Source of the DNA: a bacterium
GTDB taxonomy: Bacteria > Auribacterota > Auribacteria > Auribacterales > Auribacteraceae
Assembly: GCA_018435605.1 (NCBI GenBank)
Contig: JAHDNF010000002.1
Location: 324,538 to 388,537 of the forward strand
Direction: 5' to 3'
Length of the DNA stretch: 64,000 bases
Shown: positions 1 to 62,418 of the stretch, piece after piece
Layout of the letters: each line of letters starts with the position of its first letter
Numbering within the stretch: position 1 is the stretch's first letter
Position numbers and translations under genes: made by a program
Notes under the pieces: model-generated
What the model was told of the DNA's origin: nothing
Database searches by the model: none
The model's input: only the letters and a program-made list of their open reading frames with translations

Positions 1-3000
1 GATTCCACATCTTTAAATGTAATGGGTGCGTTCTGATAATATACATTATCGGCCGTACCTATATCTTCTTCGTGATACCCGCGTTCCCAGTCGCGGTATT
101 CGTGTTCAAACACCGCTTGAAGAACACGTTTGGCCTTAGCCTGTTCGAACGGCTCCATTTCAGCGACATACATTAATGTACTGAGATTCATATAAAAGGT
201 GCTTCTTGTACGTCCTGCGTGAGCCAAAGCTTCACCGCTATGGAAAACCCCATCCCAATCTAGTAACATGGTAAGAGAAAAGTCTGTTAATTTGTCAATA
301 TACGCCGACGAACGAAGCACGTCTAATCCCAGAATCAACGCATTACGAATACGTTCTTTGGCGACAGGCTCGGATAATTCACGGGTTAACCGCTGTTGTG
401 CCGCATCGGGAAGTTCGTCAAAAAGCATCTGAAGGTTTTTAGCCATTTGTTGAGGCGAACCTTCGAACAGCGGATTGACAATATCCTCGGCTATAGAGCG
501 TTGAAGGTCTTTGAGCTCCAAACGTACAGCCTTGCCTGCCTCTATGTTCTGCCTGATGATCTCATTGACATTGACAACATATTTACGTTTAAGATCGGTA
601 TCCGCCTCATCAATTCCCAGATCGAAATCCAAGTCCATATCCGGTTTAGATTTGACATCGATATCTCTGCCCGCCGGCAACGGTTCGTCCATACCGAATC
701 CCAGATCGAAATCCAAGTCCACGTCCTCAGCTTGTGTCTGAATTTGCGACAGCCGGACGCTGATAGGTACAACCGGCTCATCCAGCTCGAAAAATATTGC
801 TTTATCCGCAAACCGCCCGTATACCGCCATATCATTTTCAGAATTTAAATACCGGTCAAATAATTCACCGGTAAAAATGTCGTATAGACTTATTGTATCT
901 GACCGCTTAGAAAAACTTTCGGCAAGTGTCCGTATATTGATTCCGAATGTATCGTTGCTTATCAACGCCATATAATGCAATACCAGATCAGCCTGTTGAG
1001 GATACATCTGCAATACATCCCTCAAAACAGACGTAGATTGGATCAACGAATCATGGTCGAATATCCCTTCCGGCATTAAACTCTGGGCAATGATGTTGTT
1101 CACAGCTTCGGACAAACCGGCAAACGATTTCGTATCAATTTGTGCGCTTAAACTCATCACCTCTGTAACTACAGGGCCTCTGAACATAAACGGCACACTT
1201 TGTACAACCTCAGGCAAAGAATAAGTGGTAACCGATTTGAAAAGCCGGTTGAAATCGGCCAAACTCAAGGCAATATCCTCTCCGAGTTCTATACTTATCT
1301 TTTTAGAAGTTGCGGCTGTCAATTGTTCGAGTGCGGCATATTGAGCCGCGCCATCCTTTATGGCGCTAAGGAAGTTTACTATTGCGTCAATATGATTAGC
1401 GCCGATATCAGGATCAAGCGTCCGTTCGTCAATGAAAATGCGCGCAAGACCGGATGCTATATCGCTTAGTGATTGTCTTTCGTTTTCCGACAGTAGCGAC
1501 TGGCGGTATCTATTGGCAAGAAGTTCGTATATAGGCTTGAATCCCATGGCGGCAATGTGTGGAGGCACACCTACTTTCCGGCGAAACAGTTGAGAAAATC
1601 GGTCGAAAGTCATGTTGGTCTGCGCCAATATCGCATCCATAACAGCTTCACGGGCTTCGACCCCATGGGCATTGAAGAAAAGATTTATGAGATCGCCAAA
1701 CAGGTTTAAAGCGTCAGTGGTATCGCTGGTTATCAGCTTTGCAATTTGTTTTATCTCCTGATCCAATCCATCAGGTAGCTGACTTACGACGTTATCCGAT
1801 ATCCTGTCGTTAACCCGTGCAGGATCACCCACTATATTAAGTGTGTCTAAAAGATACATAGTCCCCTGCTGGCCGGTCAAAATGTTTCCGTCGGAATCCT
1901 GAACAGATACCACAAATTGATGCTGTTGGGCTCCTACAGAGAATCCTCCGAATCTCCTTAGCAATTCAAAATCGTTACCGTCGGCATCGGCAGAGTCACC
2001 TATTTTAAGTAATCGCTGGACATCAAGTTTCAATAAATCCGCTACTGTGGTTAGAACAGCGCCCTTATTGGTAAGAGACAATTCGACTTTATTGCCGGAA
2101 TGACGTCTTACCGCTACATTGTTAGCGCTAAGATAGTTTTTAAGTTCCGGTTTTTGATCGAGAAGAGTTTTAAAGTCATCAATATTCCTATTTAAGAATA
2201 ACGAATAGCGGGCGGCAGACAATTCTTCCTGTTGAATTCCGAATTCACCCAGCAGATCGCCGGCAATTTTTTCTTTCATATTGTGCGCCAGCCTCAAATT
2301 CAACGCGCTCGTTTCGATCATTTTTTCTTTATCGGTCGACGCATAACCGTAAGCCCCGTTTTCGACAAACACGTATAAATTAGGATGTTCGATACCGCGA
2401 ATATCCGGATCGATTTGATTTTGCGTACGGCCGGTAAGGATAACTACCGGAACACCCGACTCTACAAGCCGGCTGATACGCTCTTTCATTTCCGCAGAAA
2501 GCATTTGTCCTTCACCAACCAAAGTGCCGTCAAAATCTAACACCACCGCATTGTACATAGAATCGCGCACATGCTGTTTATAACGATTTATCACTGCGTC
2601 GAACACATCTGAGCCGACTGCCGATCTGATCTGATCAAGATTATAATCCGTAGCGTCAAGCAAATTACCGCTGAGCATATTATCGATCATCAATAAGAAT
2701 GCGTTGTACGGCTGATCCTGTTCATTTTTCAACGTATAGCGTTGTGCTATATCCAGAGGTATTCCCCGCAAAAGTTTGTTTATATTACTTATATATTCCT
2801 GTTGCGCAGGCGGTATCCGGTCTGCCGAGACGCTAAATACGGCTTGTAGTTCAGCCTGAGTCATAAGCCTATTATCGACCGCTATTGACTTGATCAATTC
2901 GTCCGGTGTTTTTACAGCAGGTTCGACTCTGACAACCGCAGAATTGGCGCGTTCCTTGGCGTCACGTATAGCCAACAATTGGCTTAGATAAGCGTCAAGC

Positions 3001-6000
3001 TGGCTTGCGCCGCTATAATCCGCAAGATTGGTAGTTCTGTCGCCTTCTTCATACAACACTCTGCCTGCACGGTACAACACACGTCCATTTTCTGTTCGGA
3101 TGTACTCTTCGAGTTTACCCATTACTTCTATTTCAGTGGCGTCATCTATCCGATCCTGTTTGAACGCCCATTCTTCACCGGCGGCAAACCGCGAAGTATT
3201 ATAGAGATACGAGTATACATCGATATCAGGATGGTCTACTGCCATCATTCCCATAAACAGCAGATTCGCAAGCCCTTTATGTCCGATATCTACAAACCGT
3301 ATAGAGGATACTCCTTCATTTACTCCGGAATACTCGTATATGATCGGTGCTATCAACTCCTGCGCGGCGAGAATATTTTCTCTGATATTAGAGATCAGTT
3401 CGAGAGGCGTCACCTTTTCAGGTTGGGATGTAATAGGGTTGACTATGGTTTCGCTCCGCAAAAACGATTTTTGCGCCTGTAATTGGGCGAGCGCAGTTTC
3501 AGGGGATTGTGCTGTGGCAATGGTTTTGTACATTTCCATGAAGCGCCGTGCCATTTCTTTACCTTCAACAGCATAGTCTGCTTCCATATCCGATTCGTTC
3601 ACACCCTGTTCGCGCGCCATGGTTCGCTGGATTTCATGGTATATCATAGTTACAACTGTTCGTATTTGAGGCACGTGTTCTTCGAGAAATGTCCTTCCGG
3701 CTGGAAGCAGATAACCATCCACATCGCCGCGCAACGCACGCTGATACAAATAAAATATGTCGCCGTCGCGGGTGAGGTATACCGGAGTAACATTTTCGCC
3801 CGGGGTGTTATAAAGCATGGATTCGATAAAGTCTCCAACCCGTTTAGCAGACTGCTCATAAGAATCAAATTTTGAGAATCCTTCTTTGAAACGATCTATA
3901 AAACCGGCATGATCAGGATAGAATTGTTTTGCTTTGTCACTTCGCAATCGTACAAGCTCTTTGACTTCGGCTTCGGTAAATGTTTCTATGCCGTCCATGG
4001 AATTGAGAAGCATATCTATTTCATGACGTATTACTGCCTGATCCATAACGCGGTCTTCCGATTTCGAAACGCCGAAAACAGCGAACGCCAGCCCAGCCAA
4101 CGGAATATTTTTACCATTATTTTGTTTAGATACACGAATAGTCTCCAGATCGGCAAGCAACTGTGAACGGCTGATATCAGGCATGAAATGCTGTACCGTT
4201 TCAATAACCGCTTGAATTTGCTTTTGCGGATAACCCAGAGGAACAAGATACGCCATTATATCCTGTACTATATCAGCCTGTTGATCGGGCAAGGCGCCGA
4301 GTTCCAAACCATCTTTGAGTTGAAAAGCGTCCAACTGATCTGAAGAAACCTGTTTTTCCGGCTGTATAGCCGACGAAGATTTGTCGCCGAATACAGCCGA
4401 TACGATATCGGCATGACGTCCTCCGGCAAACTGTATGATTTCACTGTACATCTGTTGCACAACAGCCTTATCGAAAAGCGTTATTACAGTTTCGCCGTCA
4501 AGCGTATATGTACTTCCGGAATCGACAAAGTTTTTCAAGTTCTGCATAGATTCCCGCACAACTTCCGGATTCCGGTTTTCTCGAATATTTTCTATCCATA
4601 TTCCTATCTGCCTCATTATATTGAGATTGTCCTGTTGAGCCTGCTTCAAAGAATCCGGAATATACCTGTTAAGCGGTATGACACTATCATTAAGAAGTGC
4701 GGAAAGGCGTTCATTCAATAAATCGGAATAATTACGCGGGGTTTGGGCTATTTGTTCAAGTCGAGTGCCGGCGGAAACTTGTGAGTCATGAAGCAACTCG
4801 TCATGCAACAGCCCCATTTGATAAGGATGTATACGCGATTGCCCGAAAATATCTGCGACCGCAACAACGCGCGCAGTAACAATGGCATCCATTACAGCTT
4901 CTTTATATTGCGCAGTAAGATTCTCAATCCTCAGCGCCGGAAAATATTCTCTAAGAAACTGTGTCAAAATCTGCGCGTTTTCGCCGGTTATGGGAATATC
5001 TCCCTTGAGCATCTGATATATGCTGTTATCATGCCGAATTTGCGCGGCTAGTTCGGAACCGGTTAGATGTTCGGTTCGGCTGATGGCATAACGCAGGCTA
5101 CCGACTTCCCTCAGTGACAGCAATTCAGACCAGTACCGGTCAATATGTTTTCGATAAACTGCAAGAACCGCGCCGTCAGCGGCGGAAACAGCTCCGTCAA
5201 GAATGTTTGTGCCCTGCGATTTTGCAAACCCTACGGCCTGCAAATAAGCCGCCATACGCGCTACTGTATTTGAGCGTTCGGCGTCATTAAGCGCAATCCC
5301 TTTCATAACAGCGTCGATAAAATCGAGCATTTCATTGGCATGATGTTCGTTATGATATGTAAGTATATCCCTTTTGCCGGATGGGTCTGTAATTTGTTCG
5401 ATGGCAAACAATCGAACCATTTCTAAGCGGGAATTTTCAGGATACGACTTCAGCGCAATGCCGGCAGAGGTTAAATCAGAGCCGGTTCTTTGCGCAACGA
5501 TATTTTCTACTCTACGTTGTTCCTGACGCAGATAAACATCTTCCATTGCGCCTTTACCGAACACATCTTCGAGGCTTTTAGAAAAAAACACTATCGCATT
5601 ATCGAAGGATGTGTTTGTCAACATCTGTTCAAGAGATGATCTAGCAATACTACGGATTTCAGCGTCACGGTTGGTCTGAGTGATTTGAACTAACCGCCTG
5701 ACGACTCTTTCTTTTTGCTGTTCTGTCAATGCGGATGCATAGCGTGAACTGAGTTGACCTAGCAGAAAAACATCCGTCCGGTTCAGTTCAATTTCCGGCG
5801 ACATCAAGTAATCAAAGCGCCGTGAAATTTTGTTTTTCGGACTATCCATTATATGTTTTGCGACCATGGTATCCCAGAAAGACAATTCTATAGGTTTGAA
5901 AGATTCTATAACCTTCTGAGACGCAACGAACGGCTCGGCGGCTGTAGCTACAGCCAGTTTTTTATTGACCTCTCCATTGTTAAGTATTTGGTGTAATTTA

Positions 6001-18000: not shown

Positions 18001-21000
18001 GAATTGACAGCCCACCACAGCAGTTCCTTTCTGATTGCGCGAAAATCATCGGCGTCATTGAAACGAGCCTCTGCAAGCGCATCCATGAGCGATTGTGTAT
18101 TTTCTATGGAAATTCCGGTTAAAGGTTTATCTTTTAGAAGATCGAGAGTAGATACAAGCGATATAATTTGAATTTTGGCTAAGCCGAGTAGCTGTTCAAG
18201 CCGTTCTTGAGCGAGGGGCACAGCCGAAATTTTATCGATAAAAAGCTCCAACCTCTTGTCAACAGGAGCTTCCATATTGGCGATATGATGATATTCCTGC
18301 TCCAGCTGTATAGCTTCCTGCTGATTAGCACGCATGTACTCGCGAAGCGATTCAACCACTCTGGCACGGGTTAATCCCAAACCGCTTACAGGCACATCAG
18401 TCCATCGGGCGGTTGACGGCAATCCTGCCAACTCCATAGCTTTTTTCTGCCACAACATCATTTCGAGGGCTTCATGGCGCGCCATGTTTGCATCGTAGGC
18501 GTATTCGGCAATGTAAATTGCGTTACGGCGTAGTCCGGCATGGGCTTTCTGTGATCCGTACAGGCTGGCTAGCCCTTTAACCACGTATACTTCTATTGTC
18601 TGCCCGTGTACCAAAATATCGTCTTTGCGCTCGAGACGCTCATCAAATATTGCTTCACGGATGACGGCATTGACTGCGGCATGTGTCGCGGCGTCAGTGC
18701 CGATATCGGCGATATTTATATCGTTTAAGTATGCTTTAAGGGTTTCATAAACGGACACAAGGTCGGCAACAGTCCATTGCAAGGAACCTATGGATATCGC
18801 GGTTGCTGAATCAGGCCGTCCGCTGAGGAAATTAAGATATGTTTCGAGCGAACGGAAAGCATCCTGAATAAAGGCGACAGTTTGCGGTGAGGCTACTCCT
18901 AAAATAGCAGAGATAAGTTTATCGAAAGATACTGTACTGTCGAATGAATCCAACGATTCCTGATCGTGGGCGATTCGATTTCTAATTCCGTCCACAAGCA
19001 AAGCTTGTAAAACCAGTAACGCCTCGAACGGCTGTCCGAGCGTTTGAGGTAAAGAAAGCGTGTCTACGTATGCGCGGAAAGAATCGTCGTTAACGACTGA
19101 TTTAATTATATCAGCGTAATCGGCCTGTACAGAAGCAAGGTCAAACCGGTTGCGTTCCAGTTGGTCGATCAGGGTCATTGCCGCTCTAACAACGGTTTCT
19201 CCCATGCGTTTAGCATACGCAGTAGACGACTCAACAGCGGATTTTGTCAATAGTTGTACAGAGGCGGCCGCGGAACCAGACTGACCGGCAAGATATATGT
19301 CAATTCGCTCTAACGCGGTCTGAACCTGCCGGCGGCTCCATTGCCCGCTAGTTAATTCCGTTCCGATCAATATGGCGTCAGGGTTGGTATTGCCCTGTTC
19401 CAATACGTTTTTCAATTCACTGCGAACCGACTCTATAAACTGTAACGCGCCTTGCGGGTCGGCCTTCGCAATTCCGCTCAACAAAACGTCTACGGAATAT
19501 GTTTCATTGAAAATAGTGTTCATCTGTTCTGAAGAAGCTACCTGATGAGTCGCCAGTCTTCTAAAAAAAGTGTCCAGAAACAGCAGGATATCGGTTTTGC
19601 GCGTGAGCGTTCGCGACTGTCCGAAATCGACAATTGTCGCCTCGTATGAACCGTCCTGATTTCTATGCAAAAAGATATTATCCGGATTGGTGTCGTTATA
19701 GATATTTGAAAAACCGGAATTGGCGGCTTGTTTGTATATAGCTTGTGATACTGCGGATATCATATTTTCAAGTCTGCTACGGTATTGAGTAGCTGATTCT
19801 CCTTCCCGCATGAAAATCTCGCCTTCTTTTTCAAACGTATGGCGTGATGCAACTTTACTGCCGGGCACCAGCGATTCAGTATAATACCTGTCGCTGGCAT
19901 ACAAATCATCCGCCGGCGTGCTGACTCCGGGAGTTCCGGGAGGGTAGAGGTTTCCGAAAACAGGAACAACTCCGCCGGTTCCGTCAAGATTGGAAACCAG
20001 CATTATATCGCGAGCTTCCCGTTCGAACATCGCATAAGATTTTTTTGACTCGTTGAGGGCAAACCGGTACGGACTGTTGTGGCCTTTTATATTGATTGTA
20101 ATGCTGTGTACATATTTGAAATTGCCCGTACCGAGATAGCCGATTTCGATCGAGGTAATATCCGCCGGATTGATATCGGTCAATCCGTGAATGACAAACA
20201 ACATTTCTTTAACAACATCGCTCTGTTGCAGAAATCGTGATATTTCGCGAATTTTTTCGGGTCCGTGGTTTTGTCCCATATCGTAAAACGGGCCGTATTG
20301 ATCGTAGTATTCATTTGAGGCTTTTATTACCCAATTGGCACGCGCTTGAGCGTCTGACGGGTCGGATAAAGATTTCCTAAGGACATTTTGCAGGTCTGCC
20401 ATATATAGTTCTGCCTGCGAACGAACGGGAGAATCGTCTTTGGCGTACACGCTCCACCAAACCATTTCACGGCGGATAGCCCTGAATTCTTCAGCATTGG
20501 CATACTGCTGGTTGCGTAATTGCCCCAGCAGATCTAGTACCTGCCGAATACCCTGATCGTCAAGCCCGGTTTGCTTCATAAGATTAAGTTGATCGAGAAT
20601 TGAAGCGATCGCAGGACTAAGAGTAAAAGCCTGCCGGCCTTCTGCCGCCTGCTGTACCGACTGTACCCTGTTATCGTTTACAAGTTCACTTGTAGCGGTA
20701 ACCTGCCCTACAAGAAGCGCCTGTTCGTGAAACTCCTGCTCCATTTGCCGCGCCAGATCGGGATTGTCTTTGATCCATGCGCGAAGCTGGTTGGCAATAC
20801 TGCCGCGTTGACCACCGAATATACCGCCTGACAAGGAATTCCAATCCATGCCTGAAGACAGCCCGGCAATCACAAGCGCCTGCTGTTGCCACAATCTAAG
20901 TTCAACGGCCTCATGCATTACAAGCTGTTCGCTGTATGCCCCTTCGGCAATATAAATCGCATTATTGCGTATTCCGGCATGCGCTTTTTGGTCGCCGTAC

Positions 21001-24000
21001 AACACGTCAACGCCTTTGATTACGTATACAGATATTTGCTGTCCGTCTACGGTAACATCAGGTTTACGCTCGACTGCATTATTGCGGTATGCGTCTCGAA
21101 TTGCCGCGTTGACAGCCGCGTGGGAAGCGGCATTTACTCCGATATCCGCTATATTCACATCGTCAAAAGCTTTTTCCAGCTTCGACTTGAAATCGCGCAA
21201 CTGTCCCATGGATATTCCGGTTTCACCTATTAAAACTCCGAGGTCACTGTCAGGTTTGGCGCTATTTTGATCGAGAAAAACCGTCAAATCAGTCAACGCC
21301 TGGCGTACAAAATCTATGCCGTTGCGTGAAGCGTTAGATATGAGTAGCTGAAGGAATGCATCGAGGGTCACCTCATTTCCTGCAAGGTCAAACGAAGTTT
21401 TATCGCCCTGTATCATATTACTCAGCGCTGTTTGTATACTGATAAACGACAGAAGAATATCGAAAGCTCTACCGGTACGTACAGCACCGCCTATATCTTC
21501 TATCAAGGCTCTAAACGAATCGCGGCCTGATACCTCCAAAAAGACGTCTATTAAATTTAGCGACCCGATCATATATTGAAAATTGTTAGATTCGGCAAAT
21601 GAGAAAACGGCATTTACAAGCGCTGTTGTCATTGCCTGTACACGGCTAAGATACTGATCTTCGGTTTCTTCAGCGTCTTTGATAAACGGAGACCGTTGTA
21701 TAATTCCCACTTGAGGCACGACTTCTTGGGTTAATGCATGATATCCTTTGTCGAGAACGTATTTCTCGGCGTACATCTGAAAACCGCCGGTAAGCGCGGA
21801 ATCCATTGAATATGCGTTAACAAACTGGGCCACAGGTGATACCGCCGTAACGCCCGTTGCAAGGCGCATACGCGCCTGTTGCCCGATGCTCGTTTGAGGA
21901 TTTTCTACTCCTTTGATAACAAAACTGTATTCTTTACCTGCAACGACAGCCGTTACTTTATACGCCATCCGGCCTGTCGGCGCAAAAAGCTGTTCGACCG
22001 TAAAACCAGATACGGATTCTGGTTCGATATTTCTCAGTCCGTGTAATACGAACAATGCATCCGATAAAACGCTCGTTTTTTCGAGCATATTCCGTACAAT
22101 AGACTGCCGGTTAGCATCAATATTTCCTATGAATTCTATCTTGCCAGATACGTCCGGCATAGACAGCGAACCGGATGTCAGAGATTTATTCAACAAATCC
22201 ATCAGGCTGGTAGCCAAATTTGCCAATTCGGTGTTACGCGACGCCACAGCCCAATATGCCAATTCACTGCGTATCGCGATAAAATCAGAGGCTGTACGGT
22301 AATCTTGAGAAAGCAATGCATTGAGATGTCCTTTAAGCGCGTCAATCTCCGAGCCTGCGAGTTCTTTTCCTTTATATGAAGCCAAGACATTGAGCGCAGT
22401 TTGTATCTGTTCTGCGGAAGAAACCGTAGGTTGAGACTGCCGAGGTTGAGCAGGTGTATAGGCAGGCACTGCGTCCTGTCCTGCAACCATAATAATGCCG
22501 TTGAATTCTATTGTACCGTTTTGATGAATACGCGACACACTGCCGTCCGAGTGAACCGCAACCAATACCTGAGGGCTTTCGAACCGGACAGTAGCAATAT
22601 CGACCAGTCCTATGAGCTCTCGATCGAGTTGCTTGCTGAATACGGTGACACGAGTGCCGTCATGTTTATGTATGAAGAAAAAATCATTTTCCTCAACACG
22701 GTTACCGTCGCGCATATCAATTATGTCCTGCGTACGCGAAACGCTCGGCGCGGAAGGTTCGTTAAATTCGGTATATCCTGAAGCGGCGTCGAGTATTTGC
22801 TCTTTTTGAGCCTGTTCGCGCAACTGGCGTAACTGTTCGGCGACCTGTATTTGTTTTTCAAGCAGTTCCGGTGTTGCTTCGAGAAGCGATACTGCAAGAG
22901 TAGTTCCTTTTCCCAGTACATTGAACAAATCCAGCGAATACGCCTGCATATCAACGATAACCGGTTTGGTCAAATCTGCAGGCGGATTTAGGAAAAATGA
23001 AAACCAGAATTGCTGTGGCACTCCGTTTTCTATGGTTATAGTAGTTATCCCGTTGCGATCTATAAAATTGCGCACTGCCGCGGGCAATATGCTACGGTCT
23101 TGGGCAACCTGCCATTCATAACGCGACTGAGATGTTTGCTCATGCAACCGGGCGATCAAACGTGCCGGCGGAGCGATTTCAAACCGTTGGTTATCGGACA
23201 TAGTAACAAGTCCAAAAGTAATCATACGGTTGACCAACGACCCGGGATTCAAAGAAGCCAAATCGTTGACAGATATATTCAGTCCGGCCAGCCGGTCGAG
23301 TATTTGTTGTTCGGATGCGAGCAGTTGTGCTCGAGGTTGCTGTAACCGTTTAATAATCCCTGCAACGGTTGCCTCGTCAATGGAATCGAAATTGCCAAAC
23401 AGCGGCATAAGAGAAGCGATGACATTATCGGTTCTGGCTCGCAATGCAAACATCTTTGCCTGATAGGCCTCGCCATCGACTATATCGATCGGCTTGCCGT
23501 TGATTGTGGCTGTAAGAAGCGGATTTAGATCATCCATTTCTTCCTTGGCGATTTCAAAAAATACAAACGGGGTATCGCCGATCACAAGCGACACATCGAG
23601 ACCTCCGTCGGGAGACTGGGTAATATTGATTCTCGTAAGTTCGTCGAACGAGCCTTTCGCCCATCCTTTGAGAAAAAAATTGTTAACGATATCGGTGAAA
23701 CTTTTTATGGCTTCTTCCGACGAAACTATCTGTCCGTCCATTTTAGCGAATTTCCCGACAGCGTATGCCACCAGCAGGCTTTTCATCTCCACCTTAAAAC
23801 TTTCCGCGCCCTTCTGGTCGATCAAAGGAGGGTTGCCCAAGCGTGACGCTACGGCCAGTGTGCTGGTTTTTTCGAGGATGTTTTCAAGGCGCTTGGCAAA
23901 CGGCGATTTCTGGTTCATCATCATGGAAATATAGGCGCTCTTGTCATCGCTACTGTGAATTACCGGAGCGACAACGTAATAGGAAATACCCTGCGCTTTA

Positions 24001-25391
24001 AGTTCTTTGGCTATGCCTTCGCTGTGAAAGCCTCCGGTGATCATAATGGCTTTGTTGTTTCCTTCCAACTCCATTTCTGCGAGCATATTGTCAAGCAGAA
24101 GGGTATCGCGTTTTTTCGACAGGGTATAAAACTCTTCGAGCAAAGGCAAGCTGTTGTCGATCAAGGATGTATTGGAATCGATAAAATACATGAATTGGAA
24201 TTGGTTGGCATAATGCTCAATGAAATCTATGATACTGGATGTTTGAAACTGTTTTTTGTTATCTATATAATATTTGAGGTCGTCGGATGAAAGTTTGAGT
24301 TCGAAGAAATTTTCAAGTATTGTCACAGTACGGTAATATGCGTCGAGTTCCTGTTGGCCTTCCGAAACATATAATTTATTTTTTATTTCATTCAATATTT
24401 CTTCGGACTCTCGAAACAGCTCCTGCATATCGATTTTCTCATATTGATCAAGATACATCACGTAGTTCTGCAAAGCCGGATAAGTATCAAGGGACACTCC
24501 GCACTCCTGTGCTTTGCGTGTGAGGATATGATGGTAATCGATGGGCTTCATATACTCCAGCTTATAAGCCAAATTATGCTTTAGAAGTTCACTGCTTTCT
24601 TCGCCGGACAGCTTTTCGACCAAAACATCCACAAGCGTTCTTCTTTGATGGCTTATAGCATCCAGATCGAGTTTCTTTTCCAGATTATGAGCTTCAAGCA
24701 TAGAGTTATAATTTTCGTAAAGCCATAAATCGATCTCGTATTTTTCGATGAATTTGTTCAAATAGGAGCTGAACTGATAAAAATTGATACTTTTATCGCG
24801 ATAATTCTCGGCTATCCGGTCGATATCCGCAAGGTCGCCGGTAAACAACTGCTCTTTGATGCGGGTGAGCACATCTTTAAGGCTGGTGCAATATTTCTTT
24901 GCGTTATGGCGTACTTCCAGCGACCGCATGAGAGCCTGATAATTCTTCAGGTAAAGATTCTTATCCTCAATTCCGACAAGACGCGAATTGCCATCGAACT
25001 CGTTCAGAATAAAAAACTCAGCGCCTGAAATAACGCCTTCTTTCATAAAATATGTAGTAACATCATACAAGGCTTCCTTATCCGGAAACGAGGTTATGTC
25101 CGGAGCGGTAATAAGACCTTGCGCGCCTTCCAGTCCTATCAGGGAAAACCCCTGAAGTGAAAGTTCTTTGATGATGTTGTATGTGTTTGCTTGAGCATCA
25201 TAATTGCAGTGAGCGTCTTTGATATGCACTACGACTCGCTCGTCCACGCCGGTGAATTTTTCAAGCACCCTACCTGAAAATCTGGATATTTTCAGGTCGT
25301 CCGCCGATACGATCGAGGTTGACAGCAACGATTCCAGCGCTATCAACGCGATGATACGCATGACAAATCTGTTCTTTAGTTTAAAAAACAT
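1..25391 (-). CDS. Giant secreted multidomain repeat protein (N-terminal >=8,460 aa; C-terminus lies beyond window start)
   Basis: ATG at 25389-25391 (minus) preceded by AAAGGAG 8 nt upstream. N-terminus is MFFKLKNRFVMRIIALIALESLLSTSIVSA|DD (n-region K/R, hydrophobic core, VSA cleavage-like site). I translated about 2 kb continuously from the start without a stop. Spot translations at ~20,100, ~18,570, ~16,000, ~9,300-9,600, ~2,400-2,560 and ~660-780 are open in one frame. The track lists no minus-strand ORF >100 aa anywhere in 1-25,400, although any frame containing a stop would have been listed. That is consistent with one unterminated frame running off the window. The many + strand ORFs in this span are antisense shadows. 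Confidence 0.75.
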   Translation of the reverse strand, partial: MFFKLKNRFVMRIIALIALESLLSTSIVSADDLKISRFSGRVLEKFTGVDERVVVHIKDAHCNYDAQANTYNIIKELSLQGFSLIGLEGAQGLITAPDITSFPDKEALYDVTTYFMKEGVISGAEFFILNEFDGNSRLVGIEDKNLYLKNYQALMRSLEVRHNAKKYCTSLKDVLTRIKEQLFTGDLADIDRIAENYRDKSINFYQFSSYLNKFIEKYEIDLWLYENYNSMLEAHNLEKKLDLDAISHQRRTLVDVLVEKLSGEESSELLKHNLAYKLEYMKPIDYHHILTRKAQECGVSLDTYPALQNYVMYLDQYEKIDMQELFRESEEILNEIKNKLYVSEGQQELDAYYRTVTILENFFELKLSSDDLKYYIDNKKQFQTSSIIDFIEHYANQFQFMYFIDSNTSLIDNSLPLLEEFYTLSKKRDTLLLDNMLAEMELEGNNKAIMITGGFHSEGIAKELKAQGISYYVVAPVIHSSDDKSAYISMMMNQKSPFAKRLENILEKTSTLAVASRLGNPPLIDQKGAESFKVEMKSLLVAYAVGKFAKMDGQIVSSEEAIKSFTDIVNNFFLKGWAKGSFDELTRINITQSPDGGLDVSLVIGDTPFVFFEIAKEEMDDLNPLLTATINGKPIDIVDGEAYQAKMFALRARTDNVIASLMPLFGNFDSIDEATVAGIIKRLQQPRAQLLASEQQILDRLAGLNISVNDLASLNPGSLVNRMITFGLVTMSDNQRFEIAPPARLIARLHEQTSQSRYEWQVAQDRSILPAAVRNFIDRNGITTITIENGVPQQFWFSFFLNPPADLTKPVIVDMQAYSLDLFNVLGKGTTLAVSLLEATPELLEKQIQVAEQLRQLREQAQKEQILDAASGYTEFNEPSAPSVSRTQDIIDMRDGNRVEENDFFFIHKHDGTRVTVFSKQLDRELIGLVDIATVRFESPQVLVAVHSDGSVSRIHQNGTIEFNGIIMVAGQDAVPAYTPAQPRQSQPTVSSAEQIQTALNVLASYKGKELAGSEIDALKGHLNALLSQDYRTASDFIAIRSELAYWAVASRNTELANLATSLMDLLNKSLTSGSLSMPDVSGKIEFIGNIDANRQSIVRNMLEKTSVLSDALFVLHGLRNIEPESVSGFTVEQLFAPTGRMAYKVTAVVAGKEYSFVIKGVENPQTSIGQQARMRLATGVTAVSPVAQFVNAYSMDSALTGGFQMYAEKYVLDKGYHALTQEVVPQVGIIQRSPFIKDAEETEDQYLSRVQAMTTALVNAVFSFAESNNFQYMIGSLNLIDVFLEVSGRDSFRALIEDIGGAVRTGRAFDILLSFISIQTALSNMIQGDKTSFDLAGNEVTLDAFLQLLISNASRNGIDFVRQALTDLTVFLDQNSAKPDSDLGVLIGETGISMGQLRDFKSKLEKAFDDVNIADIGVNAASHAAVNAAIRDAYRNNAVERKPDVTVDGQQISVYVIKGVDVLYGDQKAHAGIRNNAIYIAEGAYSEQLVMHEAVELRLWQQQALVIAGLSSGMDWNSLSGGIFGGQRGSIANQLRAWIKDNPDLARQMEQEFHEQALLVGQVTATSELVNDNRVQSVQQAAEGRQAFTLSPAIASILDQLNLMKQTGLDDQGIRQVLDLLGQLRNQQYANAEEFRAIRREMVWWSVYAKDDSPVRSQAELYMADLQNVLRKSLSDPSDAQARANWVIKASNEYYDQYGPFYDMGQNHGPEKIREISRFLQQSDVVKEMLFVIHGLTDINPADITSIEIGYLGTGNFKYVHSITINIKGHNSPYRFALNESKKSYAMFEREARDIMLVSNLDGTGGVVPVFGNLYPPGTPGVSTPADDLYASDRYYTESLVPGSKVASRHTFEKEGEIFMREGESATQYRSRLENMISAVSQAIYKQAANSGFSNIYNDTNPDNIFLHRNQDGSYEATIVDFGQSRTLTRKTDILLFLDTFFRRLATHQVASSEQMNTIFNETYSVDVLLSGIAKADPQGALQFIESVRSELKNVLEQGNTNPDAILIGTELTSGQWSRRQVQTALERIDIYLAGQSGSAAASVQLLTKSAVESSTAYAKRMGETVVRAAMTLIDQLERNRFDLASVQADYADIIKSVVNDDSFRAYVDTLSLPQTLGQPFEALLVLQALLVDGIRNRIAHDQESLDSFDSTVSFDKLISAILGVASPQTVAFIQDAFRSLETYLNFLSGRPDSATAISIGSLQWTVADLVSVYETLKAYLNDINIADIGTDAATHAAVNAVIREAIFDERLERKDDILVHGQTIEVYVVKGLASLYGSQKAHAGLRRNAIYIAEYAYDANMARHEALEMMLWQKKAMELAGLPSTARWTDVPVSGLGLTRARVVESLREYMRANQQEAIQLEQEYHHIANMEAPVDKRLELFIDKISAVPLAQERLEQLLGLAKIQIISLVSTLDLLKDKPLTGISIENTQSLMDALAEARFNDADDFRAIRKELLWWAVNSENDVLRERARVHLESLTKRLDAFVAGTVDKSAQMNWKITSGAEYTDQYGPFYDMGENHGPAKVREMKKFLQDTNVIFEMLFVLHGLTGINAADITGIDIRYVGSGHFKNVHKITVTIDSHEKPYSFVLKEPKMPHTRFDEEVAKIILSSPVTGSEGVVPAVGALYDQGRGGYHYYTEQLLEGTQLLQLEYGKASGGLLFMREGESEQAYKERIRAVVQSVVKTLFEQAQNVGFQWYMSDSKPENFFITQKEDGTYSATIADMGVTSRLETPLEMIMFMHQMFEKNIPSYMDEKARAVYSDAYSFDILLAGILKADPVAGLDFIQIAQQQINKIVSEESAKQRQDGLVLLHGSPNPNMQMTDVQVLGREGQTKQGKKGRNYGGFYTLGQENLDKAQRYANMAEGTPTIYEVVINPQVKIYEAERNGEVERLSEQRINELLAQGYGIVRGKNILGTTVEWAIIDKSVITQIRKKTAEPVFLESGVTLRQLSDLQGVLNEYTSGLHLQQEGELPVIDVFSSEERVQFAFDLAKLINSINTTEEVTQDMRDQLERFARLIESRGFANAAGHLREYALNVEQIKTLSSSENLDDRLEGALLLKNFRTRINADLFFHTGFVFNGIGIVDFYNDAVEEHVVDIEGRKETVLIFRGDRVKDPFAPIAPAQYILRGEVYPIPGYPNGAHIIYMETGESLERSIDSIKKTLEKNRATNEIVAVIEKHIADVSDKDLAALMEQLHKKHELGHFLDDQYDSPVNQNVNSAEAYAVYAPLMAIVARLESETTLTEAERETLYKNIDTLFGIDVIQHMWVKNQLFKYYTPNNPKIRYQLPMILLILELVSPETVDAVVDKIRQMEKDHVTSDFSVLTQEVYRIIEDRSDKTGLRLPYLWITEEFKQKYIDFITERFPDKVQRGKEITRALSSLTAKLSKDENYAPFADMEKWEKLNDTQTQKDVKIFKGFIFARGTVDSGLIFSNDSNTTLRQRTAIRDTLLSVGERLESLQKVSEQQYRALKFSLADRPTNFQKSSMEAGSVLLDFSLFKEANPDLLDLEVEQAVVRSTLKQLSATDTMMPLSPAAIELFSLTQYVRSFIDIVSHSASIEEGRTRQQAVVDLMEKTLGDQYTAIAKILRHVIDNNIQYETAVQPLLIEMITNQGQFSGLSNYSVEVQNELASMTPMDVQYNLEHMKNLMDFNLLRNMVGQSRTSKYASNVRAHKEQTISRILDGKDVRLAYLKVQNFKGVFNTFGSELGIGHLLGDVGIMVISKVLKEALEQRLSPYGIEVEIGNAGAEYFVTFSNVGTVDITSVLNDMIVNPSSDFRKEVVRETKQALREMMSPQAYSAIESALNTGFLPANIHMYGSLTEIVRGVTSESALTETELIESAAQKTDMLYSQAFQLAKHQQLKFSQQYESVRARLRMAVSNATEVQLADMFKPVVQDAAKVMESAILPYSNKAMQEINENSQLGMKNEYQIFHLPIAPGYEHHRSINALSEQYLYAIEKGYLYGHTQELRGRLLETMLRYQSPNITTEDIWEGNEHFKRVINYILKTQPENDVNLTFRVGGDEYSKVTWNAVTKKLNIYRFDGNNVGATNFEWGMAIGDKLIDESLRIISETEDIAKLQDNIASFFNDMGSRALKLSDEDLVMLQRKAPNFHIISQIDYQMIRGTDAYSQLVADKSAVAVEKEDGFYLVKFPDIHVPYILQKDNLHFDSSKLPLSPDAEGAMQITLRAEDDVVDFTMVRDEVTGGVILTSVNPRAPPSTVISLEQIQNGAEIFIPIQGRKPLSITINMEQEYGPKFILYGDIMLINEQAYEVRRDNLIEKDGKPALMVTSRPVVSTGYIEIDVSKIAPQYLNRDIASIQGRADSAADIAKESVKTFQILYDGQVNTALAVRHAADLFIGTAEELVSFKETVFSSWDTMIAQFLLENPSEKFKYRLNYLLNPDIPLNPTDISMLREYSLNFHSRMDDETKLAVINRLMDAWVPDVSYQTRQLISRALTDIVEHPEFAALVSTRPSQLTRIIGNPVVARGSAGIGLFFNAESNINSQESYRIREMLLKIGEQLELRNKTTESVYNSVQFELVKNPTIAQRVQSATNSLVLDINLFEDSVFNQELLMMEIESGLIRMQLDKLSMQPEVADIDHGLREMFILERYVQSFIDIANIHADSSVGAAKQKDVIASLEKLGGIYEGLPALLRSVLDNEISSASSIRDTLIDRIVSPKLQENTTYPELVRKHLSYYGYSTALDIIPQETQRLANLLQYTQIGDFVSRSRTSKYALNVRAHKETTIDRILDGRDVQMAYLKIQNFKDVFNTLGAQLGVGHTLGDAGIFVVSKVLKKELEKQLASYGVTVDIGNAGAEYFLTFSNVGVTDIESVLRNILEDPQSEFKRMVVQETKDALKSIIGAEQYAGIEQDIDSKFMAERVNMYGGLTAVLPGKTGFTGVSTADWTRRAAELTDELYSQSFALAKHQQMQFSDLYATVRDQAKMQRDVVSENELVNLFKTVVQDSAKVLKSGLTVYSLKTYQDIQENLKLGLSNEYQIFQLPIAPRFHSYTSIDQLVKNYRDAVDQGANELTLRELNDRVLETMLRYDSPNLVSDVIYEGNENFKRVINYILRESPAFDIDRTFRVGGDEYSKVVWSAATQKMSIYRFDGNNVGATNFEWGMRIGDKLIDESLRIISEIKDVSKLQSAVTDFFNNMGDRALTLTEEEMQTLQRKAPNFRLMNESEYRALVKAGTFVSDTANNSVVVVERGLNFDLVKYPDIHVPYVIQKDQVKVDSSTLPLDSEDASAMPVTLRAGDEAVDFVIIRDDATGGVILTSKNPRAPPATGITGEQIRQGATITIPVEGKTPITISLTLEHEYATRFFIHGDIMTVNEQEFDRLRDRLTEKDGKQAVMVTSRPVVSTGYIDLDLSGVDDQFRNKDISVIQGRADTAADHAKEAVKHYQILNDGQVNAQLAYLHAGSPFVASAQGMVSFQDIEFSSWDSMIADYILESYQDKMARRAALLLAQDDLLNTTDIYMLGEILTSYPHLLSAEQKSKGVYLLALAYNKTVNPDIREIVRNVVSTIFTDSDFKEAINARMNMVIPILGRPIVGRGRISGNIVFSAEYGYDFDRRDDIRSRLQRISQELEQVHKVTEQEYKNAFFEFVDGVQMRHKVTAQPNTVVVDINLFTEGMLNDDVLRIEVEQGMLRQRLRGISINPKITPINPAVQELFILENQVQSFIDIWAKNPDPQAGKNRQAAALNVITQLGDGYTNLATILNYVIQNDIRDAGYIRSSLIDLIANRGEFEGKSTYPVELQQEMQALPRAAVNSDMIRSDQLWRFSFVSNVVNGSRTSKYAQNVRAHKEDTIKKISEGRDVQLAYLKVQNFKGVFNTFGSELGVGHMLGDVGIEVISNVLRQSLNEMLSPYGITVDIGNAGAEYFVTFTNVGNVDVSGFLRSAIESPDSSFKERVVDESKNALHDLLGNERYGAIASAMNEGFLPANIHMYGGITDVLRGEKGIVDEARIHRAAESTDQLYNQAFILAKHQQMQFSSLYETTRALALSGKDKLTDRDLVDMFKQVVQDAGKVMRSGIMTYSEKAESQILENLNIGLKNEYQIFHLPIAPRYTSYTSIESLTDNYLDAIEKAQKPWLLAELNDRIVETFVRYESPNIQAEYIFEGNENFKRLVNYILQTQPDEDVLRTFRVGGDEYAKAEWNSKTKKLTIYRFDGNNVGATNFEWGMAIGDKLIDESLRIISETENIAGLQAAVERFFNDMGDRALRLSDADVAMLRSKAPGFRMMSQSEYDRLREQDGFVQETAGNSAVAVERADGVYLVKYPDIHVPYELQQDSVKIDRSKLPSSPDAEGALDISFVAGEDVIDFVISRDEVTGDVILTSVNPRAPPRTAISVKAIRDRETIVIPVEGAQPLEISLGLEPEYAARFFIHGPIMKVNSEQYEQFRDRLTEKDGKPAVMVTSRPVVSTGMIELDFSTIEPQFRARDISVIQGRADSAADVAKSSVKLHQILNNGEVNKKLAVATAAEPFVASQKVIESFKPIELSFWDTMVAKHIMDSPKNKISRRFDYLMSPEIELNRTDVFLLGQLSSRYASALTEQQKERVVRRLVQITQTNRDAEIRSIARSSLEQMLTNTSFDNAIVFFSKSLEDVFGKGAMEDVYLRQEQRRVENIVAQRTGSDLTSAGIALKSYPENSRLEMVRLFAIEQITDPSGKRDILTYHNEHHANEMLDFIDAVMKGIALNDAERSNTVARMAAYLQAVGFAKSQGTNILDGAVSAADGAVLAVYRKHIDRYWSELLSLREVGSLRYAISRTEHLTGSELAAQIRHDNSIYQMLKGDIPITGENAQILTQFLREYFPALRIENLTAQYKEAVMDAIVTARVVAVADIFGQSRIHPYQMGLLHDELLHDSQVSAGTRLEQIAQTPRNYSDLLNERLSALLNDSVIPLNRYIPDSLKQAQQDNLNIMRQIGIWIENIRENRNPEVVRESMQNLKNFVDSGSTYTLDGETVITLFDKAVVQQMYSEIIQFAGGRHADIVSAVFGDKSSSAIQPEKQVSSDQLDAFQLKDGLELGALPDQQADIVQDIMAYLVPLGYPQKQIQAVIETVQHFMPDISRSQLLADLETIRVSKQNNGKNIPLAGLAFAVFGVSKSEDRVMDQAVIRHEIDMLLNSMDGIETFTEAEVKELVRLRSDKAKQFYPDHAGFIDRFKEGFSKFDSYEQSAKRVGDFIESMLYNTPGENVTPVYLTRDGDIFYLYQRALRGDVDGYLLPAGRTFLEEHVPQIRTVVTMIYHEIQRTMAREQGVNESDMEADYAVEGKEMARRFMEMYKTIATAQSPETALAQLQAQKSFLRSETIVNPITSQPEKVTPLELISNIRENILAAQELIAPIIYEYSGVNEGVSSIRFVDIGHKGLANLLFMGMMAVDHPDIDVYSYLYNTSRFAAGEEWAFKQDRIDDATEIEVMGKLEEYIRTENGRVLYRAGRVLYEEGDRTTNLADYSGASQLDAYLSQLLAIRDAKERANSAVVRVEPAVKTPDELIKSIAVDNRLMTQAELQAVFSVSADRIPPAQQEYISNINKLLRGIPLDIAQRYTLKNEQDQPYNAFLLMIDNMLSGNLLDATDYNLDQIRSAVGSDVFDAVINRYKQHVRDSMYNAVVLDFDGTLVGEGQMLSAEMKERISRLVESGVPVVILTGRTQNQIDPDIRGIEHPNLYVFVENGAYGYASTDKEKMIETSALNLRLAHNMKEKIAGDLLGEFGIQQEELSAARYSLFLNRNIDDFKTLLDQKPELKNYLSANNVAVRRHSGNKVELSLTNKGAVLTTVADLLKLDVQRLLKIGDSADADGNDFELLRRFGGFSVGAQQHQFVVSVQDSDGNILTGQQGTMYLLDTLNIVGDPARVNDRISDNVVSQLPDGLDQEIKQIAKLITSDTTDALNLFGDLINLFFNAHGVEAREAVMDAILAQTNMTFDRFSQLFRRKVGVPPHIAAMGFKPIYELLANRYRQSLLSENERQSLSDIASGLARIFIDERTLDPDIGANHIDAIVNFLSAIKDGAAQYAALEQLTAATSKKISIELGEDIALSLADFNRLFKSVTTYSLPEVVQSVPFMFRGPVVTEVMSLSAQIDTKSFAGLSEAVNNIIAQSLMPEGIFDHDSLIQSTSVLRDVLQMYPQQADLVLHYMALISNDTFGINIRTLAESFSKRSDTISLYDIFTGELFDRYLNSENDMAVYGRFADKAIFFELDEPVVPISVRLSQIQTQAEDVDLDFDLGFGMDEPLPAGRDIDVKSKPDMDLDFDLGIDEADTDLKRKYVVNVNEIIRQNIEAGKAVRLELKDLQRSIAEDIVNPLFEGSPQQMAKNLQMLFDELPDAAQQRLTRELSEPVAKERIRNALILGLDVLRSSAYIDKLTDFSLTMLLDWDGVFHSGEALAHAGRTRSTFYMNLSTLMYVAEMEPFEQAKAKRVLQAVFEHEYRDWERGYHEEDIGTADNVYYQNAPITFKDVE
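590..735 (-). repeat. Duplicated acidic motif D-[VM]-DLDFDLG-[FI] in giant protein
   Basis: Two near-identical ~40-nt blocks (cccagatcgaaatccaagtcca) about 100 nt apart. Minus-strand translation gives ...EDVDLDFDLGFGMDEPLPAGRD... and ...DMDLDFDLGIDE... Confidence 0.6.
2400..2560 (-). other. HAD-superfamily (IIB/Cof-like) phosphatase motif region embedded in giant protein
   Basis: Verified minus-strand translation: SMYNAVVLDFDGTLVGEGQMLSAEMKERISRLVESGVPVVILTGRTQNQIDPDI. This carries motif I DxDGT(L) and motif II (I)LTGR, typical of HAD-IIB hydrolases. Confidence 0.55.
5950..15650 (-). repeat. Three tandem ~3.19-kb coding repeat units (A family) inside the giant gene, ~1,060 aa each
   Basis: Matching nucleotide blocks recur at ~6,110 / 9,290 / 12,480 (encoding DGKPA[VL]MVTSRPVVSTG in all three copies). 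Further matches at 7,200 / 10,386 / 13,590, at 7,415 / 10,600 / 13,805, at 8,010 / 11,200 / 14,400 and at ~5,960 / 9,100 / 12,300. Antisense ORFs in the track repeat accordingly (6082..6528 ~ 9454..9696 ~ 12688..12918; 7200..7400 ~ 10386..10586 ~ 13560..13976). Copies are diverged, roughly 65-75% nt identity by eye. Confidence 0.8.
16900..22100 (-). repeat. Second coding repeat family (B family, ~2.45-kb period): two clear units plus a diverged partial third
   Basis: 17,640-17,900 matches 20,090-20,340. 18,420-18,730 matches 20,860-21,180. 16,960-17,120 matches 19,400-19,560. Offsets are ~2,430-2,450 nt. Conserved peptide EMLFV[IL]HGLT[DG]IN is verified at ~17,720 and ~20,160; a weaker DALFVLHGLRNIEP lies at ~22,030. 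Confidence 0.65.
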
Positions 25392-25893
25392 GGCGTACAG
25401 CTCCTTTGTATATATTTGTATATTCTTTATTTCTATAATTTCCGAAAAACATAATATCCTTTCTGCCAGCAATATAGCATGTGCCGGAGCTTATCATTTT
25501 CATTCAAACGCAAAAAACTTCATATTAAAATAAAACTATTTTAATATAACAAAGTCTTTAAGAATCAACCGAAAAACCTTATGCAAAACGAAAGTATCAG
25601 GCGATAGGACACACAATTACTCCAACCAATCTAAGCTCGTATCTCTGTAAGATTGGTTCGCCTATACATTCTCACCGGCATTTCTCGATTTTTCAGAAAG
25701 CCTTATAAAAATATTTCAAAATCAACTATTAGATTCAATTTGCATAAAAAAGCTATAAATTTTTATCTATTCCATATAATATATTGTATCATTTTTTTTT
25801 GAAGAATACAATGTAAGCGGTACGTTTGCATACATAATTATAACAATTCAACCATAATATAATTACTAAAATCACTTAAAAAAGAATACAGCC

Positions 25894-35867: not shown

Positions 35868-35907
35868 CAAACCGTTGCTATAGAGATTATTTTAAAAGGA
35901 GGCCTGT

Positions 35908-36465: not shown

Positions 36466-36475
36466 AAGGGTCTAT

Positions 36476-42662: not shown

Positions 42663-42674
42663 CGGAGTTCATAT

Positions 42675-62387: not shown

Positions 62388-62418
62388 AAAAATATCATTC
62401 CTTCACGCATATAAATCA

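Follow-up and report, generated by a model that had tools for sequence, protein, structure and literature searches.

The giant gene and its neighbourhood

The 64,000-nucleotide stretch of contig JAHDNF010000002.1 (assembly GCA_018435605.1) that we analyzed, referred to below as the window, carries on its minus strand a giant gene whose frame runs off the window start. This gene is divergent from an lpxL-like acyltransferase gene, which is followed by an ACT-protein gene, the peptide deformylase gene (def) and one gene of the ArgC/Asd family, and by a pel operon (Table 1). Neighbouring proteins have identical NCBI entries named 'Candidatus Auribacterota bacterium'. When all frames of the window were compared, the longest stop-free stretch comprised 8,496 codons (minus strand, 3..25490), and the runner-up in any frame comprised 1,188 codons. 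At about three stops per 64 codons, the expectation for such a run is about e^-400, which would exclude a chance origin. The public gene call on a closely related contig deposited at the JGI begins at the same ATG (position 13580 of that contig, L001, corresponding to window position 25391) and assigns the gene a length of 14,303 amino acids (aa). Taking this length, the window holds about 59% of the gene and about 5,840 aa lie outside it; the full length is inferred for the window strain, as the JGI contig is 99.68% identical and comes from a different strain. The original prediction of one giant gene, incomplete in the window and starting at a Shine-Dalgarno-preceded ATG near position 25,391, was thus borne out in both respects. 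When the 5' intergenic region was scanned for promoters and terminators, no signal exceeded the shuffled expectation.

Two other assemblies, the JGI contig (3300044603 Ga0485107_000003) and a Logan contig (SRR25572339), are 99.68% identical to the window and keep the frame intact. We located them via exact look-ups of the neighbouring argC-like (semialdehyde-dehydrogenase-family) and ACT products; the JGI contig, of which 10 kb of flank were read, is 778,639 bp long and is also present in NCBI. The sister strains differ within the giant coding sequence by 20 synonymous and five nonsynonymous changes over 7.5 kb, and by 17 and five over 6.3 kb. This excess of synonymous changes points to purifying selection. 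The sole insertion or deletion relative to both sister assemblies in 21 kb is a single base at window position 29083, between the argC/asd-family gene and pelA. The G+C contents at the three codon positions (0.55/0.35/0.46) display the periodicity of coding DNA, and since both the third-position value (0.456 versus 0.458) and the codon usage (r 0.90) match those of the other window genes, the giant gene is native to this chromosome.

An ortholog on a contig of a Candidatus Auribacterota metagenome-assembled genome (L003) is collinear with aa 4723-8463 and shares 64% identity over 3,747 aa; that locus is one open reading frame (ORF) across its whole 21 kb. In three further related loci the ORF exceeds 6,430 codons, and single ORFs (more than 6,400-7,080 codons) are also seen at the orthologous and related loci of other Auribacterota and of metagenomes. 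A search of genome and metagenome contig collections with the last 400 aa of the window part retrieved relatives at 52-56% identity only. An artefact, be it an assembly chimera across the repeats, a pseudogene or a chance frame instead of one functional gene, has the unusual size and the internal repeats in its favor and nothing more; we regard it as hardly credible. The internal repeats share 64-72% of their nucleotides, with no exact repeat longer than 25 nt; because of this divergence, repeat collapse or mis-joining is unlikely. The agreement of the frame in three assemblies, the substitution pattern between the strains, the native codon usage and the single ORFs found elsewhere likewise already contradict an artefact. 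The giant frame is a genuine and conserved chromosomal gene.

Table 1. Features of the giant gene and of the surrounding window; positions are those of the window.
Feature	Position	Strand	Residues	Remarks
Giant coding sequence, part in window	3..25391	-	codons 1-8,463	frame open at window start
Shine-Dalgarno-like AAAGGAG	25401..25407	-		9 nt upstream of ATG 25391; read directly
Sec-type signal sequence (predicted)	25299..25391	-	1-31	basic n-region, 16-aa h-region, VSA/DD site; based on hydropathy
Head domain (predicted)	23772..25274	-	~40-540	TIKI/EreA/ChaN/TraB-fold hydrolase core split by ~280-aa helical insert
A-module core, diverged first copy	21192..22079	-	1105-1400	protein-kinase-like motifs degenerate
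A repeat	18987..21425	-	1323-2135	core aa 1727-2020: GTGNFKYV, NDTNPDN, IVDFG; partial kinase motif set
A repeat	16548..18986	-	2136-2948	core aa 2540-2830: GSGHFKNV, VLKE, DSKPEN, IADMG; full kinase-like set
HExxH module	15132..16511	-	2961-3420	common to P0004 and P0119 (39-43% identity); motif level
B module, copy 1	11940..15131	-	3421-4484	palm motifs NFKGVFN..GHLLGD (aa 3697-3717) and GGDEY (aa 4021)
B module, second of three copies	8745..11939	-		between copies 1 and 3
B module, copy 3	5562..8744	-	5550-6610	1,065-aa repeat
HAD-IIB (Cof-type) phosphatase (predicted)	1932..2558	-	7612-7820	motifs intact: DFDGT, T, K, GDSADADGND
C module, first copy	3..662	-	8244-8463	recurs in ortholog and paralog-like loci
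Lipid A acyltransferase-like gene	25894-26838	+		314 aa in window and Logan contig, 281 aa in JGI contig
Complete pel exopolysaccharide operon	29300-44057	+		starts ~4 kb from giant gene start
pelA part 1, GH114 gene	29300-30166	+		split PelA
pelA part 2, DUF2194 gene	30163-32337	+		split PelA
117-aa gene between pelC and pelD	~36475-36828	+		public gene call; weak response-regulator-receiver similarity; outside canonical pel set
Two overlapping ORFs	49781-51327	-		237 and 285 aa; no Pfam match; directly downstream of radical-SAM genes, same strand
Large radical-SAM/DUF2344 gene	51242-53797	-		
Second radical-SAM gene	53794-54579	-		
Wzy_C O-antigen-ligase-type domain fused to long TPR array	56275-59250	-		991 aa; envelope-polysaccharide gene
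Pyruvoyl-dependent arginine decarboxylase and arginase/agmatinase-family pair	61500-63003	-		polyamine (putrescine) synthesis

Domain content of the giant protein and its relatives

The N-terminal domain of the giant protein, termed the head, is predicted to be a hydrolase of the TIKI/Ere fold. Its AlphaFold2 model (pLDDT 86, pTM 0.70) displays an alpha+beta fold with a parallel beta-sheet core that is interrupted by a helical insertion of about 280 aa. In an alignment of 22 diverse heads, D59, H61, E88, R428, G453, G454, H456 and P476 are invariant, and these residues form the motifs D59-x-H61, E88, R428 and G453-G-F-H456. The active TIKI site of RRSP consists of two His and two Glu residues (E3900-x-H3902, E3930, H4030) and the basic R4001 (PMC6254334). 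Two His, two acidic residues and one basic residue are likewise found in the head, the first acidic residue being Asp and not Glu; its spacings from D59 to E88 (29) and from R428 to H456 (28) are to be compared with 30 and 29 in RRSP. Judged by these motifs, the head is probably catalytically active and, by analogy with its structural relatives, would be a cofactor-independent peptidase or esterase. Within the comparison set of the TIKI/EreA/ChaN/TraB-PrgY/GumN superfamily (ChaN 2g5g, EreC 6xcq, HopBA1 5t09, RRSP 5w6l), the head is set apart by this Asp, by the insertion that splits its core and by its position as the invariant N-terminal domain of multi-kiloresidue proteins. The Pfam model for ChaN, a member of the Tiki superfamily (PF04187), matches three of the 22 aligned heads (best E 4.9e-7) and leaves the window protein unmatched; a PDB sequence search with the head profile gave spurious EF-hand matches to the helical insert only. 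Cys62 (window 25206-25208) directly follows the putative catalytic His61 (DAHC). Cys prevails at this position among the heads without being invariant, and Cys62 may be functional because it is among only three cysteines in 8,463 residues.

This head is shared by a large number of other giant proteins. A search with aa 1-5000 against a word-indexed protein collection retrieved 116 homologs, each of 2.7-7.8 thousand amino acids (kaa), and in nearly every case the match is limited to aa ~40-520 of the query and lies at the homolog's own N-terminus. Their named sources are mostly Omnitrophota, Elusimicrobiota (including Endomicrobia) and Auribacterota, with a few labelled Chlamydiae; the closest giant homologs come from Auribacterota, including Ca. 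Auribacter fodinae. The enzymes embedded in these homologs include PGM, GNAT, radical SAM, SecA-DEAD, kinases, glutamine synthetase, TIM, M48 peptidase and others. The head is 22-33% identical to the N-termini of giants named Candidatus Omnitrophota or Omnitrophica. A profile built from the 22 diverse heads found 10,338 cluster representatives (clusters defined at 50% identity) among 1.84 billion proteins, 7,342 of them at E<=1e-30, and in all of the best 150 matches the head begins at residue ~1-130. The longest protein matched has about 7,830 aa; since the collection seems to omit or truncate proteins beyond about 8 kaa, the sizes of the giant families are underestimates. Within the giant protein itself, a local hidden Markov model search detected the N-terminal copy of the head alone and no internal extra copies. 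The giant gene thus very probably belongs to a superfamily of giant proteins that is defined by this head.

Downstream of the head, the protein contains a repeat with a period of about 813 aa (A module) in two copies spanning aa ~1323-2948 that are 35-48% identical, and in a third, weaker copy. The A modules are probably of a protein-kinase-like fold. Their kinase motifs were read by eye, and an hhalign comparison with bona fide Pkinase domains of the related loci aligned the catalytic loop and the DFG motif (probability 10.8%, E 0.0028). Pfam matches below threshold were to Pkinase (best E 0.064) and to Kdo, APH and YrbL, which are kinase-like families too, and a PDB sequence search with aa 540-2960 found no match. 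The module that follows carries HELGH at aa 3201-3205 (window 15777-15791), which reads HEMKH in two relatives, and a conserved SAEA about 20 residues downstream. We consider this a possible cryptic gluzincin-like site; a relaxed Pfam scan gave no family match for the module, nor was there a structure match.

Three copies of a second repeat (B module), with a period of about 1,065 aa and a mutual identity of 45-65%, occupy aa ~3421-6610. An AlphaFold2 model based on the three copies and three relatives (pLDDT 77.7, pTM 0.64) has helical, alpha/beta and beta-rich parts. Foldseek retrieved nothing significant for it from the PDB, and the top weak matches were GGDEF and Cas10. Each copy bears two motif sets. 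The first, KIQNFKxVFNTFG...GHxLGD...IGNAGAEFF, is GGDEF-like with the metal-binding Asp and the GGDEF signature replaced, and the second follows about 300 aa downstream (GNENFKRxxN...FRVGGDEYGKLVW). Taken together, model and motifs show a predicted GGDEF/palm-fold domain in each B module. These domains differ from GGDEF diguanylate cyclases such as PleD (1w25) in several respects: PF00990 gives no match even at E<=10; the first palm has K-I-Q for D-x-D and NAGAEF for GGDEF; the second palm, with N-E-N and GGDEY, lacks the GHxxGD helix pair; and both are built into a 1,065-aa module that also comprises helical and beta-rich domains. As judged by the alignment, the catalytic D-x-D and GG[DE]EF do not occur together in any one domain. 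At least one palm therefore looks degenerate, with binding likelier than catalysis, and the B domains are more likely to be binding or regulatory domains, or other nucleotidyl-transfer enzymes, than canonical cyclic di-GMP synthases; the motifs do not establish them as bona fide diguanylate cyclases. A PDB sequence search with the B profile found nothing, and a profile search for wider relatives gave three fragments. The B module is rare, with a handful of relatives, and A and B modules alike are confined to a few Auribacterota-type proteins. A recent link between the B module and the degenerate GGDEF domain of the neighbouring PelD was considered and rejected, as hhalign shows no relationship.

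Further towards the window start lies a predicted HAD-IIB phosphatase domain with intact motifs I-IV (DFDGT, LTGR, NKG, GDSADADGND). It matches PF08282 (Hydrolase_3) with 47.8 bits against a cut-off of 20.9, and its subtype comes from the NCBIfam HAD-IIB/Cof models, TIGR01484 (HAD-SF-IIB) being borderline with 41.7 bits against 41.8. Pfam and NCBIfam recognize only this domain in the window part of the protein, more than 95% of which has no Pfam match; relaxed Pfam scans of five unannotated segments gave no families, and a PDB sequence search with aa 6600-8463 yielded the HAD domain plus weak beta-lactamase noise. The earlier reading of the sequence had described repeat modules of about 815 and 1,060 aa and an embedded HAD phosphatase-like domain, and our data agree with each of these. 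Beyond these, the modules are not without recognizable character: the head has a TIKI/EreA/ChaN fold, and the B module contains a GGDEF-fold domain.

The exclusion, in the earlier reading, of a classical adhesin and of a non-ribosomal peptide synthetase (NRPS) or polyketide synthase (PKS) was also confirmed. An NRPS/PKS megasynthase or a classical RTX/Ig-repeat adhesin would fit the size of the gene and nothing else. We reject both identities, since neither Pfam nor NCBIfam detects C/A/T, KS/AT, Ig, cadherin or RTX models at E<=0.1, and GGxGxD and LPXTG motifs were not found in the giant protein; ACP and BIg families are likewise absent from the Pfam and NCBIfam results for the window part, and the 813- and 1,065-aa repeats hold mixed alpha/beta folds of enzyme-like character. 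This is the most improbable of all explanations weighed here.

The last 220 residues encoded in the window belong to a C module that recurs every ~800-870 aa in the ortholog and in paralog-like loci, followed each time by a family 2 glycosyltransferase (GT2) domain and a cluster of transmembrane (TM) helices. Beyond the equivalent of the window edge, the ortholog repeats the C module every ~850 aa, each time with GT2 (PF13632, PF00535) and strongly hydrophobic helices, and carries a Ser/Thr protein-kinase domain further downstream. Two loci of the P0001 type (L005 and L006) display the pattern of C module, GT2 and TM cluster three times, plus a kinase, and P0001 and P0117 combine HAD with GT2. 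The missing 5,840 aa of the giant protein most likely hold repeated membrane-embedded glycosyltransferase modules as well. Shorter relatives of more than 6,430 aa (L005 and L006, JGI Ga0302253_1000011 and Ga0067045_1027531; and L004) share the head and HAD with the giant protein and have a single A-type module, three repeats of C, GT2 and TM and a Ser/Thr kinase; B modules are absent from them. Compared with this architecture, the window gene looks expanded, by additional A modules and by the insertion of three B modules.

Membrane topology and proposed function

The giant protein begins with MFFKLKNRFVMRIIALIALESLLSTSIVSA, followed by DD. This segment (aa 1-31), in which positive charges precede the hydrophobic helix, is the sole strongly hydrophobic stretch in 8,463 aa and the only uncharged segment with a KD19 hydropathy of at least 1.6. 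The composition of its n- and h-regions and the VSA/DD site agree with the Sec-type signal peptide of the original prediction, and a signal-peptide-like hydrophobic N-terminus is present in 127 of the 139 head-family representatives. Alternatively, the segment could act as a signal anchor that stays uncleaved. Hydropathy reveals no further TM-like segment from aa 29 to 8,463; after the head, KD19 reaches at most 1.32, whereas 69 of the 224 long family members have a TM-like segment there (aa 520-1200, median position 794). The same prediction had called the protein secreted. Secretion is not established, and because the ortholog continues downstream with TM clusters, GT2 domains and a kinase, the giant protein would be at least membrane-anchored. 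The presence of several nucleotide-dependent module folds also disfavors simple secretion.

Cysteine accounts for three of the 8,463 residues (0.035%), compared with a mean of 1.62% in 26 neighbouring proteins. All three cysteines (positions 62, 168 and 297) reside in the head, and none occurs in the 8,166 aa beyond residue 297. The corresponding content is 0.07% in the ortholog, and the median among family representatives is 0.39%.

Several observations argue for export of the N-terminal mass: the cleavable-looking Sec signal together with the absence of a later TM-like segment in 8,463 aa, the largely extracytoplasmic nature of the head's structural relatives, the extreme avoidance of cysteine, and the fact that the two clearly intact catalytic domains of the window part (head and HAD) are cofactor-independent hydrolases that could act outside the cytoplasm. 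The alternative is that the protein is a membrane-tethered multi-enzyme and signalling scaffold facing the cytoplasm. Its hydrophobic N-terminus would then serve as a tether only, or the head alone would be translocated, and the GGDEF-fold, kinase-like, HAD, GT2 and Ser/Thr-kinase modules would feed the membrane GT2 domains from the cytoplasm. Such an arrangement would suit folds that normally need GTP, ATP or NDP-sugars, and the TM-like segment in 69 of the 224 long homologs would turn the head into a periplasmic loop, with the rest in the cytoplasm; Nielsen and Lui (2026; 10.64898/2026.06.07.730766) so read the 46% of Omnitrophota giants that have TM helices only. In the giant protein, however, no such segment exists, the signal looks cleavable, cysteine is missing from everything beyond the head, and several of the nucleotide-fold modules are degenerate. 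We rate the cytoplasmic arrangement as unlikely, though it is the main rival, and we assign a membrane side to the N-terminal mass of 8,400 aa with low confidence. The contradiction between export and nucleotide-dependent folds has been discussed, and left unsettled, for the Omnitrophota giants (West-Roberts et al., 2023, 10.1101/2023.11.21.568195; Nielsen and Lui, 2026).

The genes around the giant gene read as the ordinary chromosome of a diderm bacterium, and within the window no secretion system borders on the giant gene. After the split pelA, the pel operon continues with genes for a PelB-like TPR protein, a PelC-like lipoprotein, PelD (GAF plus degenerate GGDEF), PelE-like TPR/HEAT proteins, PelF (DUF3492 plus GT4) and PelG, and looks unusual for a candidate phylum. 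The start site of the lpxL-like gene is ambiguous because its product is called with different lengths in the different assemblies. Other window genes encode tRNA-Ser, trpD, TPR proteins, radical-SAM proteins, an M17 peptidase and dinB.

Taking topology, domains and neighbourhood together, we consider it probable that the giant gene encodes a Sec-targeted, membrane-anchored multi-domain protein of about 14,300 aa that acts as a single-chain envelope platform. For a specific role of this platform in glycoconjugate or exopolysaccharide synthesis and remodelling, which we infer from the domain folds, we would claim an even chance at best. The signal sequence would carry the nascent chain to the inner membrane through Sec/SRP targeting, the head would act as a peptidase or esterase on the periplasmic side and may process the giant precursor or a substrate, and the C-terminal GT2-TM repeats would hold the chain in the membrane. 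One chain would thereby couple membrane glycosyltransferases with hydrolases (the head, HAD and possibly the HExxH module) and with regulatory or nucleotide-binding modules (GGDEF-fold and kinase-like), forming a machine that might build and remodel an envelope glycoconjugate or exopolysaccharide. The nearby envelope genes (lpxL-like, pelA-G and the Wzy_C-TPR fusion) support the platform.

A number of points weigh against this proposal. Export of the N-terminal part is at odds with the presence of GGDEF, kinase-like, GT2 and Ser/Thr-kinase folds, since such domains usually depend on GTP, ATP or NDP-sugars from the cytoplasm. The giant protein has no TM helix after its head, and such a helix, as found in the relatives, would return the downstream mass to the cytoplasm. 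Low cysteine spans regions of the ortholog on both sides of its TM clusters and is thus no clean compartment marker. The kinase-like assignment of the A modules is weak in hhalign and sub-threshold in Pfam, the first palm of the B module lacks catalytic residues, and the proximity of the pel operon may be coincidental. Moreover, the function is deduced from domain folds alone, and the 41% of the protein outside the window from the 64%-identical ortholog and the gene-call length alone.

Two further readings would place the protein, or parts of it, outside the producing membrane. One regards the signal peptide plus TIKI-fold head as the unifying feature, essential to the mechanism, of a vast superfamily of giant Sec-exported polyproteins that had so far gone unrecognized (10,000 clusters or more, from Omnitrophota, Elusimicrobiota, Auribacterota and their relatives), with the head as the protease that matures an exported, cysteine-free precursor into many extracytoplasmic enzymes and binding modules. 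If true, the nucleotide-dependent modules (GGDEF-like, kinase-like, GT2) would use extracytoplasmic or foreign-cell nucleotides, or would have been repurposed for binding; we deem this reading rather improbable. More doubtful still is the 'Archaeovorin' reading, according to which a secreted or surface protein would mediate attachment to prey and digestion of its cell wall, with the enzymes acting on or in the target cell. Pfam detected no adhesin, lectin, dockerin, glycoside-hydrolase or lytic-transglycosylase domain in the giant protein, the ordinary biosynthesis genes of the window (trpD, argC-like, def, lpxL-like, polyamine and pel) suggest a free-living cell, no secretion system adjoins the gene, and the TM clusters of the ortholog favor retention in the producer's own membrane.

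Relation to known giant proteins

With MARTX and giant polymorphic multi-effector toxins, the envelope platform that we favor would share the layout of a very large, cysteine-poor exported chain of unrelated enzyme modules, including one of the TIKI fold (RRSP). It differs from MARTX toxins by the lack of RTX or glycine-rich repeats, of a CPD autoprocessing domain and of a neighbouring type I secretion system, by its N-terminal Sec-type signal where MARTX proteins have a C-terminal type I signal, and by the TM and GT2 repeats of its ortholog. Giant RTX/Ig-repeat adhesins of the LapA, SiiE and MpIBP type resemble it in size and near-zero cysteine; its modules, however, are of an enzyme-like alpha/beta kind, and Ig-like, cadherin and RTX repeats are missing.

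Published work on bacterial proteins of more than 10,000 aa centers on Omnitrophota. In the two preprints on Omnitrophota giants, a term search found no mention of Auribacterota, and one Auribacterota genome paper that we checked mentions no giant proteins; proteins of at least 10 kaa have been noted in other PVC-group phyla too (West-Roberts et al., 2023; Nielsen and Lui, 2026). The N-terminal regions of Omnitrophota giants are stated to be generally without identifiable domains (West-Roberts et al., 2023; Nielsen and Lui, 2026), and a literature text search retrieved no paper connecting TIKI or ChaN with giants of this type. The assignment of a fold and a catalytic motif to the head, the use of the head to mark the superfamily, the GGDEF folds within the clade-specific B modules and the quantified avoidance of cysteine appear to be new. 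The superfamily would reach 14.3 kaa in Auribacterota. Because the biosynthesis genes and the pel operon of the window suggest a free-living cell, the class would not be tied to ultra-small episymbionts. With its conserved fold and catalytic motif, the head can be tested as a peptidase or esterase, and it offers a simple sequence handle for gathering the superfamily of about 10,000 clusters. The conflict between the export signals (signal peptide and low cysteine) and the nucleotide-dependent folds (GGDEF, kinase-like, GT2) can now be stated in a resolvable form.

The closest known class are the Omnitrophota giants themselves ('Archaeovorins', the multi-enzyme class with signal peptide and TM helices; West-Roberts et al., 2023; Nielsen and Lui, 2026), a kinship that the original prediction had raised as a hypothesis. 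Homology through the head to giants of Omnitrophota, Elusimicrobiota and Auribacterota upholds it, with the qualification that the host phylum is Candidatus Auribacterota. A signal peptide and/or TM helices occur in 94% of the catalogued giants of this type (West-Roberts et al., 2023; Nielsen and Lui, 2026), and most giants beyond 30 kaa carry a SecA-DEAD-like domain (West-Roberts et al., 2023). The window protein differs in that Pfam detects no SecA-DEAD (PF07517), HEAT, C39 or S8 domain in its window part, in having no TM helix between the signal segment and residue 8,463, and in its A and B modules with their narrow distribution. What it has in common with these giants is a single uninterrupted ORF of more than 10 kaa (as given by the gene call of the sister strain), an N-terminal signal sequence with TM clusters (judged by hydropathy, the latter from the ortholog), enzyme domains such as HAD, glycosyltransferases and kinases scattered through mostly unannotatable sequence, internal repeats that are ancient and diverged and not recent tandems, and direct homology via the N-terminal head. 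By these features, the giant gene can be placed, as a further member from a different phylum, in the known class of giant multi-enzyme membrane proteins.

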